This document shows positions 5,694 through 51,265 of a stretch of 51,296 nucleotides of DNA, piece by piece. Positions within the stretch are counted from its first letter, which is position 1. Every line of letters starts with the position of its first letter. The stretch is from sequence record MN432485; one strand, written 5' to 3'. The translations under genes and the position numbers were made by a program. The notes under the pieces were generated by a model. That model did no database searches. It was not told the origin of the DNA and saw only the letters and a list, made by a program, of their open reading frames with translations. This DNA is from Shigella phage SFP17.

Positions 5694-5739
5694 ATTATGC
5701 CCGACACAAGGCCGGGCGTTTTAACAAAAAGTGCTATTT
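5694..5739 (-). promoter_or_regulatory. conserved-motif promoter (motif + 22 nt dyad spacer + CATAAT)
   Basis: AAATAGCACTTTTTGTTAAAAC then GCCCGG...CCGGGC then CATAAT; upstream of 5482-5661. Confidence 0.5.
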
Positions 5740-6713: not shown

Positions 6714-6759
6714 ATTATGGCGCAATCCTTCGCGCCTGTTTTAACAAAAAGTGCTATTT
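6714..6759 (-). promoter_or_regulatory. conserved-motif promoter upstream of dam
   Basis: AAATAGCACTTTTTGTTAAAAC + 22 nt (GGCGCgaaggattGCGCC) + CATAAT. Confidence 0.5.
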
Positions 6760-7173
6760 CATCATGTATTCTACCGCGATCATGAATTGCTTATATCCGT
6801 ATGTTACGGCAGCGAATCCGCCAAGCTCACGCACACGGCGCAAGAAGTCTTTTTGCTCCTTGCTGACTGGTGAAGCCTTACCCTTGCCAGACTTATTGAC
6901 GCGTTTCATCTCAATAGCCGCGAATGGGTAACGGCCTTTTAATCCAATCAGGATGATAAAATCACTTACGCCCTTAACGAGTCCAGCTTGCTGATCCATC
7001 ATTGCGGTAGCGATACCCTTTTCTCCCTCATTTTTCGTATGCCAGGCAAGAAATTCAGGATGAGCATAAGTTAACCATTGAAACGCCCCAATCTGGTGTG
7101 ATTCCTCTTTTAGCGTATCCGTCGGATCTCTTTCGTAAAACTCCAGATAATCGCCTTTATCAGTCATTGCCAT
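6754..7173 (-). CDS. VRR-NUC-like PD-(D/E)xK nuclease (139 aa)
   Basis: GVSDFIILIG...AAIEMK pattern matches VRR-NUC core; ATG at 7173 with GAAGGA RBS, overlapping helicase stop. Confidence 0.65.
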   Translation of the reverse strand: MAMTDKGDYLEFYERDPTDTLKEESHQIGAFQWLTYAHPEFLAWHTKNEGEKGIATAMMDQQAGLVKGVSDFIILIGLKGRYPFAAIEMKRVNKSGKGKASPVSKEQKDFLRRVRELGGFAAVTYGYKQFMIAVEYMMK

Positions 7174-9229
7174 AATTAAAGTCCTTCTTGTACAAATTAT
7201 CTTCACCCTTGCTAGTCTTGCGGTGAGTCACACGCGATGGCGGCATAATGTGATTCACATATTGCATTATTTTTCGTGCATTACGATAGCTCGCCACCAT
7301 GCCAGCAACGCGGCGATCTGGTATGTGCTTAAGAGCAACGCTTCGCCATTTTGCGCGGCAAATTTGGCTCTCAGATTCAGGGAAAAATATCTCTCTCGCC
7401 CTGAAAGTGTCCATGCCATCGGAAAGCTCATAATTAAATATTATCCCTTTCTGGTTTTTCGTCATGTCAACCGAGAAAGATTGCACCTTGAACCAGTCGT
7501 TTTTTGTGTAGTGCTTTCCGCTCAACTTCTCGTTAGGGTCGATCAATGACATGTCGCAATGTCTGCACACCCTGGCCGCAATATCATTTTTCGTTCCACA
7601 ACCGCGATGAATAATCTTTTTAGTGCGCGGGTCAATCTGATCATCGCATGTCCTGAATTTAAAGAACCACTCGCATCTGTTGCCGTTTTCGTCTACGTTC
7701 ATACAACGACGAGCATAATAGCTATTAAGAGTTCCGCAAATAGGGCAAGGTTTCGGATCTTTACCATTTCTGAATCGCTTCTGATGCTGCGCCTGTTCAA
7801 GTATCGGATCAAAATAAAGCTCACCTAACTCATCCATAGTTCCTGAAAAATCCATTACTAGGTGATCATCTTTCTTGAATCCTTGCTCCTTATGCCACTT
7901 CTTAAGCAGTCGCATTCCGCGTCCTAAAAGCTGAATCAACAAAGTTAGCGATCCAATCTTGCGCAGAATAACAGACGTATCCCAAAACGGCACGTTAACG
8001 CCAGTTGTTAGCGCCTGCACCTGGAAGATGTATTTAACCTTCCCCTCGTATGCTTCCCTCAGCCACTCCTTGCGCTGATTGTCGCCAGTCTTACCAGTAA
8101 TGATCCTGTAAGTAGTCCCATGTGGCAACGCTGCCGCTGCCTCTTTGCAATGCCTTTCTCCTGCACATGTCACAAGTACGCCATTGCGGTTTTTACAGAT
8201 CTCGTGAACTTTTGCCATGATGCGCTTTGTCATGGTCGCTTCTTCATGAATTTTTTGTTCCATCCTACGAAGCGTTTTAGCGTCAAAGTCTGCAACGCCA
8301 TCCTCGCTGGATGCCTCAAACTCTGAAAGGTCATACCCTAGATCGCCAACGTCGCCAAAATTTGTTGGCACAACAGAACCGAATTTAATCAGGTAGTTGG
8401 TGTCAATATTAGTAACCTGTTCACGCCAGAATCCTTTTTGTTTTTTGTCTTCTACCAGGATCGGGACTACGCCGCGAAACTCCGATCCAGTCATGCCAAA
8501 TATGCGCAGTTCATGGCCATATGCTTTCCTGCAACGTCGCATCATTTCCATGATAATGACAGTGTATTGTGTGCGGCCTGTTCCCTCCATTGGCAAGCCA
8601 TCCTCACCAATCAGGAACTCTGTATTTCTGTTCCTGCTTCCCTTTGTTATGTCATAATCTGGATTTGGTACTTTTTCGCCTTTCTTAGTTGTCATTTGTA
8701 AAAATGACTCGTCTTTCTCTATTGCGTCGGCAAGGTCTTCCCAATCCACCTGGTGACACTCGTCAATCCCGATAACGTGCGGAACATAGTCGCCAAGCGC
8801 TTTAAACAGTCCATTAACTACAGTTCCCTCAGAACCAACAACGATCGGAAAGTATGCGCTTTTTGTCTTCAGTCCTGCACAATAGATGGAGTTCGGCACA
8901 CCAAGATTTGTTATCTCTTCAGAATCCTGATCCACAATCTCAGCCTGGCGAGCAAGGACCATCATTTTCAAGCCCATTTTCCGGCACTGGTGAGCAACCA
9001 TTGCAAACATCAATGTTTTGCCAGCCGATACGGACGCTTTAACAAAGAATGGATGCTCATAATTTTTCATACGCTTTGCGATCTCAGCGTATGCAACGCA
9101 CTGGTAAGGGTAAGGCACAATTTCGCCAACAGTGAATCGCTCCTGAATGGATTTAATTACCGCTTCACCAAGTGCTGATATTTGCTTTTCAATGTTTGGA
9201 ATCATTCTAAAACCTTTGAGTAATGCCAT
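7160..9229 (-). CDS. SF2 ATP-dependent DNA helicase with C-terminal zinc ribbon
   Basis: Walker A SVSAGKT, DECH box (GIDECHQV), paired C-terminal CxxC motifs; start ambiguous (ATG 9229 nearly leaderless, or ATG 9205 with AAGG RBS). Confidence 0.85.
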   Translation of the reverse strand: MALLKGFRMIPNIEKQISALGEAVIKSIQERFTVGEIVPYPYQCVAYAEIAKRMKNYEHPFFVKASVSAGKTLMFAMVAHQCRKMGLKMMVLARQAEIVDQDSEEITNLGVPNSIYCAGLKTKSAYFPIVVGSEGTVVNGLFKALGDYVPHVIGIDECHQVDWEDLADAIEKDESFLQMTTKKGEKVPNPDYDITKGSRNRNTEFLIGEDGLPMEGTGRTQYTVIIMEMMRRCRKAYGHELRIFGMTGSEFRGVVPILVEDKKQKGFWREQVTNIDTNYLIKFGSVVPTNFGDVGDLGYDLSEFEASSEDGVADFDAKTLRRMEQKIHEEATMTKRIMAKVHEICKNRNGVLVTCAGERHCKEAAAALPHGTTYRIITGKTGDNQRKEWLREAYEGKVKYIFQVQALTTGVNVPFWDTSVILRKIGSLTLLIQLLGRGMRLLKKWHKEQGFKKDDHLVMDFSGTMDELGELYFDPILEQAQHQKRFRNGKDPKPCPICGTLNSYYARRCMNVDENGNRCEWFFKFRTCDDQIDPRTKKIIHRGCGTKNDIAARVCRHCDMSLIDPNEKLSGKHYTKNDWFKVQSFSVDMTKNQKGIIFNYELSDGMDTFRAREIFFPESESQICRAKWRSVALKHIPDRRVAGMVASYRNARKIMQYVNHIMPPSRVTHRKTSKGEDNLYKKDFNYGND

Positions 9230-9243
9230 TTGGCGTGTATAAT
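9216..9243 (+). promoter_or_regulatory. sigma70-like promoter for regulator/primase operon
   Basis: TTGAGT - 16 nt - TATAAT within palindrome GTGTATAATACAC; divergent from helicase promoter. Confidence 0.4.
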
Positions 9244-9282
9244 ACACAATCATTAAATCATCGTTTAACAAAAAATGCTATT
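9239..9282 (-). promoter_or_regulatory. conserved-motif promoter upstream of helicase
   Basis: AATAGCATTTTTTGTTAAACG + 21 nt + TATTAT; predicted start site almost coincides with ATG 9229. Confidence 0.45.
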
Positions 9283-9294
9283 GGAGAATGAATA

Positions 9295-9768
9295 ATGAAA
9301 GAACAGCGAATCGCAGTATCAACTGGTAAGATTGACAAACGCACAATCAATGGCAATAACGGAACTCGACGGGGTAAAGATAAGAAAAAGCGCAAGCGCC
9401 CTACAGGATACTATGTTTTAAAAGATGAAGTGCGCGCCGGACTAAAAGCACGGCTTGACATTCTTATTGAGTATTACGGCAGCGTGTCAGCAATGGCAAA
9501 GCGTCTTAACGTTAGCCAGCAAACTGTAAATCAGTGGCGCGTTCGCGGTATGATTTCAGCCGCTGGCGCTCAAAAGGTGCATAACGATTACAAAAAGTAT
9601 GGCTGTCAAGGCTATCGCGCTTCATTCTGCCGTCCAGATCTGCGATTTGATTCCAATGGAAAACCGCTCACAAAGAGATGTGATAAGCGTGAAATGTTGC
9701 GAGTGGTAAGAATGTCAGATTATGAGCCTGGCGGATTCCTGTATAAACCTGAAAGCACTAATTGCTAA
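9295..9768 (+). CDS. HTH DNA-binding protein (157 aa), putative replication/transcription regulator
   Basis: RBS GGAGA; HTH-like AMAKRLNVSQQTVNQWRVRG; basic N-terminus; directly upstream of primase. Confidence 0.65.
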   Translation: MKEQRIAVSTGKIDKRTINGNNGTRRGKDKKKRKRPTGYYVLKDEVRAGLKARLDILIEYYGSVSAMAKRLNVSQQTVNQWRVRGMISAAGAQKVHNDYKKYGCQGYRASFCRPDLRFDSNGKPLTKRCDKREMLRVVRMSDYEPGGFLYKPESTNC

Positions 9769-9775
9769 AAACAAT

Positions 9776-9813
9776 GCCTGGCATGATGTTATCATCTGTC
9801 AGGCTTTTTTGTT
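9776..9813 (+). terminator. hairpin + T-run (attenuator-like) between regulator and primase
   Basis: GCCTG...CAGGC stem with long loop followed by TTTTTTGTTT. Confidence 0.35.
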
Positions 9814-9823
9814 TGAGGTGCAT

Positions 9824-10756
9824 ATGAACAACGAAAACTTTATGGTTTATCAAAAGGAAGATGTTCTCCCATATATGCAAGGATTGTGGCGTGAGGCGCT
9901 ACAAAGTATTTGCGGTCTTCCAAATGAAGTTTTTAACGGCAAGCATCAATCTTGCCCCCACTGCGGCGGAAAGGATCGCTTCAGATGGACGGATAAACTT
10001 GGCGATAAAAAAGGCGATGGCGGTGCGATCTGCAACGTGTGCGGTAATGATACCGGAATTGGTTGGATCATGAAGCTAACCGGAGAACCTTACAGCGAAG
10101 TGATCAATATTTTGGGCCGCTTTCTTGGAAAAGTTCCGCAGGACTATAGAATCAAGGCAAATAAGCGAGTATCTCGTGATTCTGGTTATTCGTTTGGGAA
10201 ACAGGCAAGCCATGAATGCTGCGAGCGCGTTATGTCAAAAACACTAAAATTTGATCGCACGCCGTTAAGCACATATGAAGGAATATACCCGCCTGAAGAT
10301 GGTCATTATGATTGCGGCGTTAAAGATGGTCGATACATTCACGCGCTCCCATGTTACCTGGTACATTCAGATGAAATTGATGATGAAATGTGCAATGTGC
10401 TTTTCATTGATGAAGAAGGTAATAAGTCTTTTCTCGCAAAGGACTACACGCGCGGGTCGATTGTGAGAACAGGAAGCACAGATAAGACGATCTATCTTTG
10501 CGTTGACTGGATTGATGCGCAACACATCCATCTTGCAACTGGTCAAGAGGTTTGGGCCTGTTTTGATGCAACTAACATTGAGATTGTGGCTTACAGGTAT
10601 AAAGGCAACAGAAGAATGCGAGTTGTCTGTAAGAGCACAGATCGTGACGCTATCATTGCCGCAGAGGAAAGAGGTCTTGAAATTATGATGCCGATTAATG
10701 ATAATTACAGGCAAGGGATAGAGAAGAAGGTTTACAAACCTGAATCTCTTCTCTAA
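9824..10756 (+). CDS. DNA primase (zinc-binding plus TOPRIM-like)
   Basis: Zinc motif [14 protein letters not shown]...CNVCG; acidic DxD-like core; RBS GAGGTG; ATG at 9824 (track start 9722 is non-ATG and crosses a hairpin). Confidence 0.75.
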
Positions 10757-17830: not shown

Positions 17831-17940
17831 ATAATCACAATAAAAATCACCGGACACGCAAAATCACACAAAACATAGATAACAAGAAAAAACAAATATA
17901 AATATATATACTACTAACTTATTGATTTATATGTATGTAT
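17831..17940. repeat. iteron/AT-rich repeat block, copy A
   Basis: ATCACA/ATCACC iterons incl. TAAAAATCACC, then AACAAATATAAATATATATACTACTAACTTATTGATTT; ~85 percent identical core to 47491-47530; plus strand almost G-free. Confidence 0.6.
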
Positions 17941-18376: not shown

Positions 18377-19014
18377 TGGTCGTAAACATCAGTCTTTATT
18401 GCAATTATTGAATTTCCGTTATTTGTTATAGAGCCTGTTCCTGGCGTTGTCCTTGCTGCACCTATCCTTGTGCTTGAACCATCATACCTGCATGATGTAT
18501 ATATGTCAGACGCACCCATACCTATAACCGCACCAAGCCTTGATGGGCAAACAGCATAAGAACCAGATAATGTCTGATCTATATTAGTTCCCCCTGAAGA
18601 ACCAGGAGTACCAATTGTCACAAGGTCTGTTAGCACCCTGCTTTCATTAGTTAAAACCAACTTGCCGCTTGCATCCCATATAGCCATGCCATATTTTGGT
18701 AGAGTTTGAGGGAATATGGCAAATATATAAACAGTCATTGTAAATGATTGACCGTATGGATTGCCTCCGTTTACATAAATGTTGCCACCATTCCTGTAAG
18801 CTATTAATGCAGTTGGCTGCTGTGTGTTTGTTGTTTTTATAAATGCCATACATGGATAAGATTGGTTTAATGGTATATTTGCGCTTGCGCTATGATAGGC
18901 AGAAGTGCCAGAAGATGAATAAGTGTACTTGCCATATAAGCAAAATGGCGTTGATTTTGGTGTGATAAATGGATTCCCATTTGATAAAGATAACATTGCT
19001 CCATATTCAGCCAT
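18373..19014 (-). CDS. putative tail-tip associated protein, paralog B (213 aa)
   Basis: ATG at 19014 with RBS GAGAGGG; N-terminus MAEYG shared with upstream gene; internal WDASGK repeat of the N-terminal WDANGK. Confidence 0.6.
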   Translation of the reverse strand: MAEYGAMLSLSNGNPFITPKSTPFCLYGKYTYSSSGTSAYHSASANIPLNQSYPCMAFIKTTNTQQPTALIAYRNGGNIYVNGGNPYGQSFTMTVYIFAIFPQTLPKYGMAIWDASGKLVLTNESRVLTDLVTIGTPGSSGGTNIDQTLSGSYAVCPSRLGAVIGMGASDIYTSCRYDGSSTRIGAARTTPGTGSITNNGNSIIAIKTDVYDQ

Positions 19015-28709: not shown

Positions 28710-28729
28710 ATAGCACTTTTTGTTAAAAG
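28710..28729 (+). promoter_or_regulatory. conserved motif copy in reverse orientation relative to flanking tail genes
   Basis: ATAGCACTTTTTGTTAAAAG reads rightward, abutting the RBS of the minus-strand chaperone gene; poor -10 (TAGCAT) at the usual spacing. Confidence 0.35.
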
Positions 28730-32469: not shown

Positions 32470-32489
32470 ATAGCATTTTTTGTTAAACG
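32470..32489 (+). promoter_or_regulatory. conserved motif copy in reverse orientation relative to flanking capsid genes
   Basis: ATAGCATTTTTTGTTAAACG reads rightward between two minus-strand capsid genes; poor -10 (TATGGG). Confidence 0.35.
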
Positions 32490-43600: not shown

Positions 43601-43631
43601 GATGTTTTCCTTTTTCGTTGTCGATGGGCTT

Positions 43632-43677
43632 ACTATACCGCAAGCCCAACAATCTGTTTTTGCAAAAAGTGCTATTT
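43632..43677 (-). promoter_or_regulatory. conserved-motif promoter
   Basis: AAATAGCACTTTTTGCAAAAAC + 22 nt + TATAGT; upstream of 43301-43600. Confidence 0.5.
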
Positions 43678-46365: not shown

Positions 46366-46397
46366 TTTGTTTTCCTCAATCTCGTTTCGATGAGGCT

Positions 46398-46443
46398 ATT
46401 ATGCCAGGATTTGCACCTGGCGTTTTAACAAAAAGTGCTATTT
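46398..46443 (-). promoter_or_regulatory. conserved-motif promoter
   Basis: AAATAGCACTTTTTGTTAAAAC + 22 nt (CCAGGtgcaaatCCTGG) + CATAAT; upstream of 46180-46365. Confidence 0.5.
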
Positions 46444-47375: not shown

Positions 47376-47545
47376 ACATATAAAAATCACCACACATCAC
47401 CATTGATTAAAAAATATACAATCACACATACATATCACCACAAACAATACCACTCCACCATATACCCATAGAACAAGCTCAACAGTAAATAACAAATATA
47501 AATACATATATAACTAACTTATTGATTTTATGGGTATATATATAA
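47376..47545. repeat. iteron/AT-rich repeat block, copy B
   Basis: TAAAAATCACC plus 4-5 ATCAC(C/A) iterons, then AACAAATATAAATACATATATAACTAACTTATTGATTTT; direct orientation relative to copy A; plus strand almost G-free over ~125 bp. Confidence 0.6.
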
Positions 47546-47867: not shown

Positions 47868-47905
47868 GCACACATCGAAACGAGATACCATTCAGGAGAT
47901 AGCAA

Positions 47906-49241: not shown

Positions 49242-49272
49242 AAGCGCATCGACAACGAACGAGGATTTAAAA

Positions 49273-51225: not shown

Positions 51226-51265
51226 CACTTTTTGTTAAAAGCCAGGTGTAAAAGCCTGGCATAAT
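51220..51265 (+). promoter_or_regulatory. conserved-motif promoter driving the gene at window position 1
   Basis: AAATAGCACTTTTTGTTAAAAG + 22 nt (GCCAGGtgtaaaaGCCTGGC) + CATAAT, then RBS AAAGGAGA at window end. Confidence 0.5.

Follow-up and report, generated by a model that had tools for sequence, protein, structure and literature searches.

The gap of 89 bp between the helicase gene and a gene for a small helix-turn-helix regulator in Shigella phage SFP17 (sequence record MN432485) appears to be a bidirectional promoter. The whole stretch analysed, 51,296 nucleotides (nt) in length, is referred to here as the window. The two genes point away from each other and the gap between them holds the control region reported here. 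The leftward arm, which leads to the helicase, would be a class II promoter of the MarA/SoxS/Rob type, and the rightward arm, which leads to the regulator, an ordinary sigma-70 promoter; the chances for and against this reading are judged to be evenly balanced. It is carried by the anatomy of the gap, by conservation among related phages, by the match of a repeated motif to the marbox consensus and by a geometry identical to that of the micF promoter of Escherichia coli.

The window was assigned to Hanrivervirus (Tempevirinae, Drexlerviridae), a T1-like phage, and the region 8700–9900 shows 99.4% identity to Escherichia phage vojen. The intergenic alignment comprises 17 sequences, i.e. the window and 16 relatives, which together represent about a dozen genera of Drexlerviridae. 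Viral contigs were searched with a pattern, which gave 75 loci with the same architecture in genomes of approximately 50 kb, 56 of the 75 being unique. Statistics of motif positions are based on 66 sites from five genomes. Motif-to-−10 distances are based on 65 sites from four genomes, the window, T1, Klebsiella phage KP1801 and the 44-kb phage PCEc3.

Probable divergent promoters with a shared −10

The rightward −10, TATAAT, is at positions 9238–9243 on the plus strand and is separated by a 16-nt spacer from the −35-like sequence TTGAGT (9216–9221); its predicted start is near 9249. The leftward −10, TATTAT, occupies positions 9244–9239 of the minus strand, with a predicted start near 9231. 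The two hexamers overlap by 5 bp and thus form one shared −10, with the core TATAATA at 9238–9244. Positions 2 (A−11) and 6 (T−7) of the hexamers pair reciprocally, A9239 with the leftward T−7 and T9243 with the leftward A−11. The nearest A residues, A9249 on the plus strand and A9231 on the minus strand, are the predicted transcript starts and lie 18 bp apart. Reciprocal −10 pairing with starts 18 bp apart is the commonest class of bacterial bidirectional promoter (bioRxiv 10.1101/2020.01.31.928960; PMC12825309). Both arms lead into genes provided with a ribosome-binding site (RBS), the helicase on the left and the regulator on the right.

Of the 17 aligned intergenic sequences, 14 have the TATAATA core, which is replaced by TATCATA or TATACTA in the rest. 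The inverted motif TTTARCAAAAARTGCTAT, situated to the right of the core, is retained in nearly all 17. The rightward −35 reads TTGAGT in Hanrivervirus (the window), TTGACT in Tlsvirus, TTGAAT in Tunavirus and TTGTCA in Webervirus, with TTAACG or TTTATT in other genera. In phage TLS the promoter P57 (ttgact-17-tatcat; ttgactaaatgccatttgcggcatatcat) is the homologue of the rightward promoter; only three sigma-70 promoters are predicted in TLS, and P57 is one of them (PMC11447400, supplementary table). A preliminary description of this DNA, drawn from the sequence alone, had proposed a compact divergent region with overlapping −10 sequences. The sequence features on which it was based are all present where it had placed them, and the divergent arrangement is supported by the P57 homologue as well as by a leftward arm typical of the motif-promoter family described below.

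The TTGAGT-16-TATAAT sequence matches the sigma-70 consensus at 10 of 12 positions and is the top promoter-like site in a scan of positions 8500–10500. Promoter-like sites in these 2 kb number 5 vs 3.7 expected, which is barely over background. The 13-nt palindrome GTGTATAATACAC (9235–9247, strandless) surrounds the shared −10. It was considered as a special feature of the region and rejected, as it is single-copy in the window, where perfect 13-nt palindromes number 14 vs 12.8 expected; other genera share only the inner TGTATAATACA or TATAATA. Since the counts of palindromes and of promoter-like sites are both close to chance, the weight of the argument rests on the motif family and on conservation. 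A scan of the whole window against Rfam at gathering thresholds showed no known RNA family.

The repeated motif as a proposed marbox

The hexamer at the leftward −35 position, 17 nt upstream of TATTAT, is TAAACG, which matches the consensus at only 3 of 6 positions; thus the leftward promoter has no −35 that would be usable alone, and the consensus scan lists no leftward promoter. A 20-nt motif, ATAGCATTTTTTGTTAAACG, is found at 9281–9262 on the minus strand, 17 nt upstream of TATTAT. It is in forward orientation for the leftward promoter, with a predicted centre at about −40. Its reverse complement had been placed by the preliminary description between the rightward −10 and the regulator RBS, and is confirmed there at 9262–9281.

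Approximately 19 copies of ATAGCACTTTTTGTTAAAAC-like sequence are present in the window, each with a −10-like hexamer at a set distance, and most are followed on the same strand by a leader, a strong RBS and a start codon. The sequence resembles the site of the E. coli activator MarA, for which the consensus 5′-gcannwwntgnnaaa-3′ (PMC12052159) and the classical 20-mer marbox AYNGCACNNWNNRYYAAAYN (PMC2064960) have been given. Exact matches to the 15-mer consensus GCANNWWNTGNNAAA number 19 in the window vs 1.83 expected, and none of 100 shuffled sequences reached 19. A search with the 19-mer AYNGCACNNWNNRYYAAAY (PMC2064960), one mismatch or fewer being allowed, also shows 19 matches in the window vs 1.53 expected. 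Further positions of the 20-mer were left free by the search pattern, yet these agree with the consensus as well, position 19 excepted. An A is expected at position 1 and is present in 62 of 66 sites; a pyrimidine (Y) is expected at positions 2, 14 and 15 and is present in 60, 65 and 62 of the 66, respectively; and the C expected at position 7 is present in 58 of 66. The helicase copy ATAGCATTTTTTGTTAAACG matches the 15-mer exactly and the 20-mer at 12 of its 13 specified positions.

The spacing is also highly constrained. Of the 65 sites, 49 have a distance of 20 nt from the AAA of the motif to the −10, and another 6, among them the helicase copy of the window, have one of 19 nt. An RBS and an ATG in the same orientation nearly always follow downstream. 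The same motif-to-−10 pattern is found in Vibrio phage Vc1. A class II promoter is defined by a forward marbox that overlaps the −35 and is centred between −36 and −55 (PMC12052159). In the leftward arm the consensus, a forward orientation at the −35, the spacing and a poor −35 are all found, with the start itself predicted.

For calibration the geometry was compared with micF, an established class II promoter of E. coli. In both, GCA is the end of the site distal to the −10 and AAA the proximal one. In E. coli K-12 micF reads ACAGCACTGAATGTCAAAAC-N18-TAGAAT-N7 up to the annotated MicF 5′ end, and its AAA-to-−10 gap is 20 nt. Comparison with the phage copy ATAGCACTTTTTGTCAAAAC shows 16 of 20 bases identical, including the A at position 19. 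Both have an asymmetric 20-bp site, AYnGCACnnWnnRYYAAAYn, which is forward, overlaps the −35 and is centred at about −40/−41. The distance from site to −10 is 18 nt in micF and 17 nt for the helicase copy. RamA sits on micF at about −41 and reads CACT-7X-AAA (RamA structure paper, Klebsiella). The mar operon marbox ATGCCACGTTTTGCTAAATC, as read from the genome, is also near the phage sequence. The phage sites differ from host marboxes in that they number approximately 19 per genome and are near-consensus, whereas host sites are degenerate. They differ from the micF class in being situated in a virulent phage genome, where the activator could be a phage protein.

The motif is the same element as the 21-nt direct repeat (DR) of Drexlerviridae, known from TLS and also from T1, Rtp and Rogue1. 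TLS carries 18 intergenic repeats (DR1–DR18), oriented with transcription, with the consensus aaATAGCACnnnTTGnTAAAA (PMC11447400). Read as a TLS-type repeat, the helicase copy is caATAGCATtttTTGtTAAAc, oriented toward the helicase, and its first base is 78 nt before ATG 9205 (approximately 76 in TLS). The layout of TLS is as found here, with DR11 between regulator and helicase and DR10 overlapping the 3′ end of the regulator gene; P57 and the terminator T57 are the counterparts of the rightward promoter and its terminator. The TLS paper is silent on a −10 at a set distance, on the marbox match and on the shared −10.

For the repeat the TLS authors propose a stoperator, enhancer or UP-element role, and they list its function as an open question (PMC11447400). 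In line with these proposals, the motif might work with no dedicated activator, as a UP-like or unusual −35 element or as a stoperator-type silencing site. In favour of this, it is A/T-rich around TTTTT and AAAA and contains TTG, but an invariant GCA(C) block is unexpected in a UP element. The strict distance and orientation to the −10 favour a promoter part over a roadblock, and the close match to micF, spacing included, would have to be a coincidence. We consider this explanation quite improbable. A UP element or shifted −35 was also examined directly and rejected, as TTGnTA is 22 nt from the −10, which is too far for a −35.

A second alternative is that the motif is the site of the phage's own Cro-like regulator, which would bind as a dimer to a partial inverted repeat, TAGCA-N5-TG(C/T)TA, at about −42, activate the motif promoters as lambda cI does at PRM and, from the site downstream of the rightward promoter, exert negative feedback on its own gene. 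About half of the sites have a perfect 5+5 inverted repeat, a centre near −42 fits a dimeric class II activator, and the regulator gene adjoins a motif copy in every genome examined. TLS has only three canonical sigma-70 promoters and one of them serves the regulator homologue, as could be expected of an early activator. However, in the remaining half the repeat is broken by TGTTA, and A1, C7, T11 and A17–19 are conserved without symmetric partners, which the marbox explains better. With respect to a Cro-type operator, the motif is only partly symmetric, and the palindrome is single-copy and conserved no further than TGTATAATACA. The start of the recognition helix varies by genus (QQ, HA, FG, IQ, TK and others) while the DNA motif is constant, which argues, weakly, against the regulator as the reader of the motif; the invariant parts of the protein are outside the helix-turn-helix. 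The PRM/PR regions of lambda (Cro/cI) are similar in having a Cro-fold gene at compact divergent promoters with a possible activator site near −42. They differ in that the window palindrome is unique and not a repeated operator set, in that the phage promoters share one −10 and are not back to back, and in that the phage is virulent. The regulator is regarded as an unlikely reader. A host factor of the Mar/Sox/Rob type receives about half of our expectation, the regulator a clearly smaller share, and what is left goes to another phage factor or to none.

With a host-type activator, the region would function as follows. Rightward, a plain sigma-70 promoter would start transcription near 9249 and give a one-gene RNA for the Cro-like regulator, ending at 9776–9810. 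Leftward, an activator of the MarA/SoxS/Rob type, most likely the host's own, would bind the repeat at about −40, contact sigma region 4 or the alpha subunit and recruit RNA polymerase. The leftward RNA would start near 9231, with about 26 nt of leader ahead of ATG 9205, where translation of the helicase would begin by way of AAAGG. Only one polymerase at a time could occupy the common −10 DNA. Strong activation of the helicase arm should therefore cut regulator synthesis, as both arms need the same −10. Polymerase competition would suffice for this and a roadblock would not be needed.

A comparable arrangement is found at PacrA/acrR of E. coli, where SoxS, via a marbox, activates one arm and represses the divergent one by polymerase competition (Warman et al., PMC12825309). 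SoxS when bound is no hindrance to elongation (PMC12825309). In both systems divergent mRNAs, which for the phage are predicted, flank a shared symmetric −10, with a marbox-type site on one arm and a helix-turn-helix regulator on the other. The marbox of acrA is of class I and upstream (RamA structure paper, Klebsiella), whereas that of the phage is arranged as in class II. AcrR, a TetR-type auto-repressor, closes both arms, whereas the phage regulator is Cro-like. The preliminary description had suggested that the motif could also act as an operator for the rightward promoter. This is possible, and the motif would occupy approximately positions +14 to +33 in the rightward RNA, where a bound protein could block transcription. 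By analogy with PacrA/acrR a roadblock operator is less likely, since repression there is purely by polymerase competition and bound SoxS is no bar to elongation.

Several observations weigh against this reading of the region. Native Rob is described as largely inactive unless induced, and cells free of stress have little MarA or SoxS, yet T1-like phages thrive in plain broth. At marbox position 7 the helicase copy ATAGCATTTTTTGTTAAACG has a T and not a C, and it has a spacer of 17 nt where the modal value is 18; a shorter spacer is common to the helicase promoters of KP1801, PCEc3 and Vc1. Position 19 of the 20-mer, where Y is expected, is mostly A, though micF has an A there also. Phage Vc1, labelled as infecting Vibrio cholerae, carries the motif. 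The position of the regulator on one of the few canonical promoters is what would be expected of a phage-encoded motif activator too. In the rightward arm the −35 is weak in several genera and overlaps the complement of the helicase RBS, and because of this overlap the conservation of its TT may be partly a by-product. The literature searched holds no transcript-start, binding or genetic data for T1-like phages.

Earlier work on TLS has described the repeat, the rightward promoter and the terminator, and mechanistically all parts belong to known kinds. In a literature search, which is incomplete, the reading as a single bidirectional promoter, the set −10 spacing and the class II marbox match were not found; no paper tying marboxes to T1-like phages was found in the same search, which covers few subscription journals. 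A wider proposal is that T1-like phages, including the Klebsiella weberviruses, use class II marbox promoters, served by host MarA, SoxS, Rob or RamA, for the expression of most of their non-structural genes. We regard this as plausible, with a probability somewhat short of even. If it is true, phage expression and the switch between helicase and regulator would be wired to the host antibiotic and oxidative stress regulon, and a large, widely isolated phage family would depend on or sense the regulators of enteric multidrug resistance. Bacteria with up-regulated mar or ram would then be different hosts for T1-like phages, and the finding would bear on the behaviour of these phages in stressed or resistant hosts. 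The marbox reading also makes the question raised in the 2024 TLS paper on the 21-nt repeat a testable one. As a conserved phage bidirectional promoter in which just one arm has an activator site, the region would be a clean example for promoter biology.

Start of the helicase gene

The helicase coding region (7160..9205, minus strand) specifies 681 amino acids (aa) from ATG 9205, with ResIII and Helicase_C domains, and the same start is given in the RefSeq record of vojen. The RBS AAAGG is at 9217–9213. A predicted 5′ untranslated region of about 26 nt would extend over 9206..9231 on the minus strand, its transcript start being inferred. A start of the MIPNIEKQ type, with AAAGG 7–10 nt upstream, is found family-wide and out to Vibrio phage Vc1, and CCTTT, the complement of the helicase RBS, is conserved across the 17-sequence alignment.

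An additional ATG is present upstream (9227..9229, minus strand). The preliminary description had taken this codon as the helicase start, with a leftward RNA beginning at or next to it, a leaderless or near-leaderless helicase and the inverted motif as a blocking operator. In keeping with that model, the A of ATG 9229 is 9 nt past TATTAT, with the predicted transcript start 1–3 nt upstream of that A, the codon is in frame in the window, and, as had been noted, it has no Shine-Dalgarno sequence. The block CCAAATGGCATT, which includes the ATG (window 9206–9229, minus strand), is retained in three genera. However, an equivalent of ATG 9229 is restricted to these three, Hanrivervirus, Warwickvirus and Tlsvirus, and is lacking in most genera. 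The frame is shifted by a length difference of 1 nt in two of the three, Warwickvirus and Tlsvirus, and the result is an open reading frame of 8–9 codons with an ATGA overlap with the helicase start. In Webervirus the ATGs nearby reach stop codons after three to five further codons. The equivalent stretch in Tunavirus, Changchunvirus, Henuseptimavirus and others has the usual leader motif of the family (AAACGA...) and is plainly untranslated. Other motif promoters have leaders of 30–45 nt with an RBS. The model of a near-leaderless helicase combined with a blocking operator is therefore very improbable, as ATG 9229 is lineage-specific or out of frame and the 9205-type start with its RBS is conserved.

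Thus the most likely helicase start, as judged from comparison of sequences, is ATG 9205 on a leader of about 26 nt. The preliminary description had itself named initiation at ATG 9205 from a longer transcript as an outcome that would speak against its model. Conservation speaks for the codon part of that outcome, initiation at ATG 9205; a longer transcript is unnecessary, the same leftward RNA with its leader of about 26 nt being enough. A minor extended helicase isoform or a tiny upstream open reading frame is possible. What is retained in the three genera is the CCAAATGGCATT block and not its frame, and the block could be a coupled mini-open reading frame or a non-coding signal.

The regulator gene, the primase start and other motif copies

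The regulator gene (9295..9768, plus strand) encodes 157 aa with a single Cro/YdaS-like helix-turn-helix. Its RBS, GGAG (9283–9286), is 8 nt before ATG 9295 and 1 nt past the motif, and GGAG or GAGG is conserved at this site. A terminator follows at 9776–9810, a GCCTG...CAGGC hairpin with T6 and a free energy of −20 kcal/mol; within its loop lies the −10 belonging to the motif promoter that follows. Because the hairpin and T6 come directly after the gene, the regulator constitutes a one-gene unit. Homologous regulator terminators are annotated in T1 and in TLS (T57).

The regulator shows borderline Pfam matches to YdaS and P22 Cro and belongs to the PHROG family phrog_2856. An AlphaFold model based on 43 homologues has a mean pLDDT (predicted local distance difference test score) of 85.5. 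The best Protein Data Bank (PDB) folds for this model are Xfaso 1 Cro and N15 Cro, with an E-value of about 0.01, which is weak, and no AraC/MarA fold is among the 50 best PDB matches shown. The possibility that the regulator is a MarA-like protein was rejected in view of the Cro matches, weak as they are, and of the lack of an AraC-family fold among these 50. A tblastn search with E. coli MarA of five phage genomes gave a best E-value of 0.33, i.e. no detectable homologue. The most conserved parts of the regulator are outside the helix-turn-helix and consist of an N-terminal basic segment, DKRTxNGNNGTRRGKDKKxRK, predicted to be disordered, and a C-terminal segment, RASFCRPDLRFDxNGK, with conserved cysteines. 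This hints at a function that may go beyond simple operator binding.

Another motif copy, AAAGCACTAATTGCTAAAAA, is at 9752–9771 and overlaps the end of the regulator gene, so that the last codons and stop of the regulator (STNC*) are encoded by it. The −10 of this promoter, TATCAT (9790–9795), is in the loop of the regulator terminator. A strong RBS, GAGGTG, precedes ATG 9824. The vojen annotation starts the primase at 9722, and in several other phage records its start lies beyond the regulator gene. Because a motif promoter and the RBS GAGGTG are situated just upstream, the primase probably starts at 9824 and not at 9722. The gene-level corrections are independent of the mechanism: the helicase keeps its start at 9205, and that of the primase is probably 9824.

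A second conserved block, CATCGA(A/C)AACGA, is found directly past the −10 of most motif promoters, at the predicted 5′ end of the mRNA. Examples are at 47868–47884, 46392–46408 and 49242–49258, and each of the five genomes examined has the block. It is missing from the helicase leader of this phage and present in the helicase leaders of other genera. Many motif promoters also display a GC-rich hairpin in the spacer before the −10, or across the −10, e.g. at 6719–6736, 5697–5717, 46401–46421, 51242–51260 and 43631–43655. The stems differ between copies yet stay complementary. The T1 record calls such hairpins rho-independent terminators, so that the −10 may serve at the same time as the U-rich tail in the terminator of the upstream gene.

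Two motif copies, 28713–28727 and 32473–32487 on the plus strand, run counter to the structural genes, and the gene starts downstream of them are poor or absent. Their T1 counterparts are at 18847 and 15083 on the minus strand, and DR7 of TLS is similarly antisense. These copies could be antisense promoters or decoy sites.

About 20 public records (MG0656xx) labelled 'Campylobacter phage' show 97–98% identity to this E. coli phage region, and the host label appears doubtful. A 95-nt A/T-rich direct repeat is present at 17834–17928 and 47434–47528, with 71% identity, and is also found among the inverted-repeat matches; both copies end ...AACAAATATAAATA...ACTAACTTATTGATTT.

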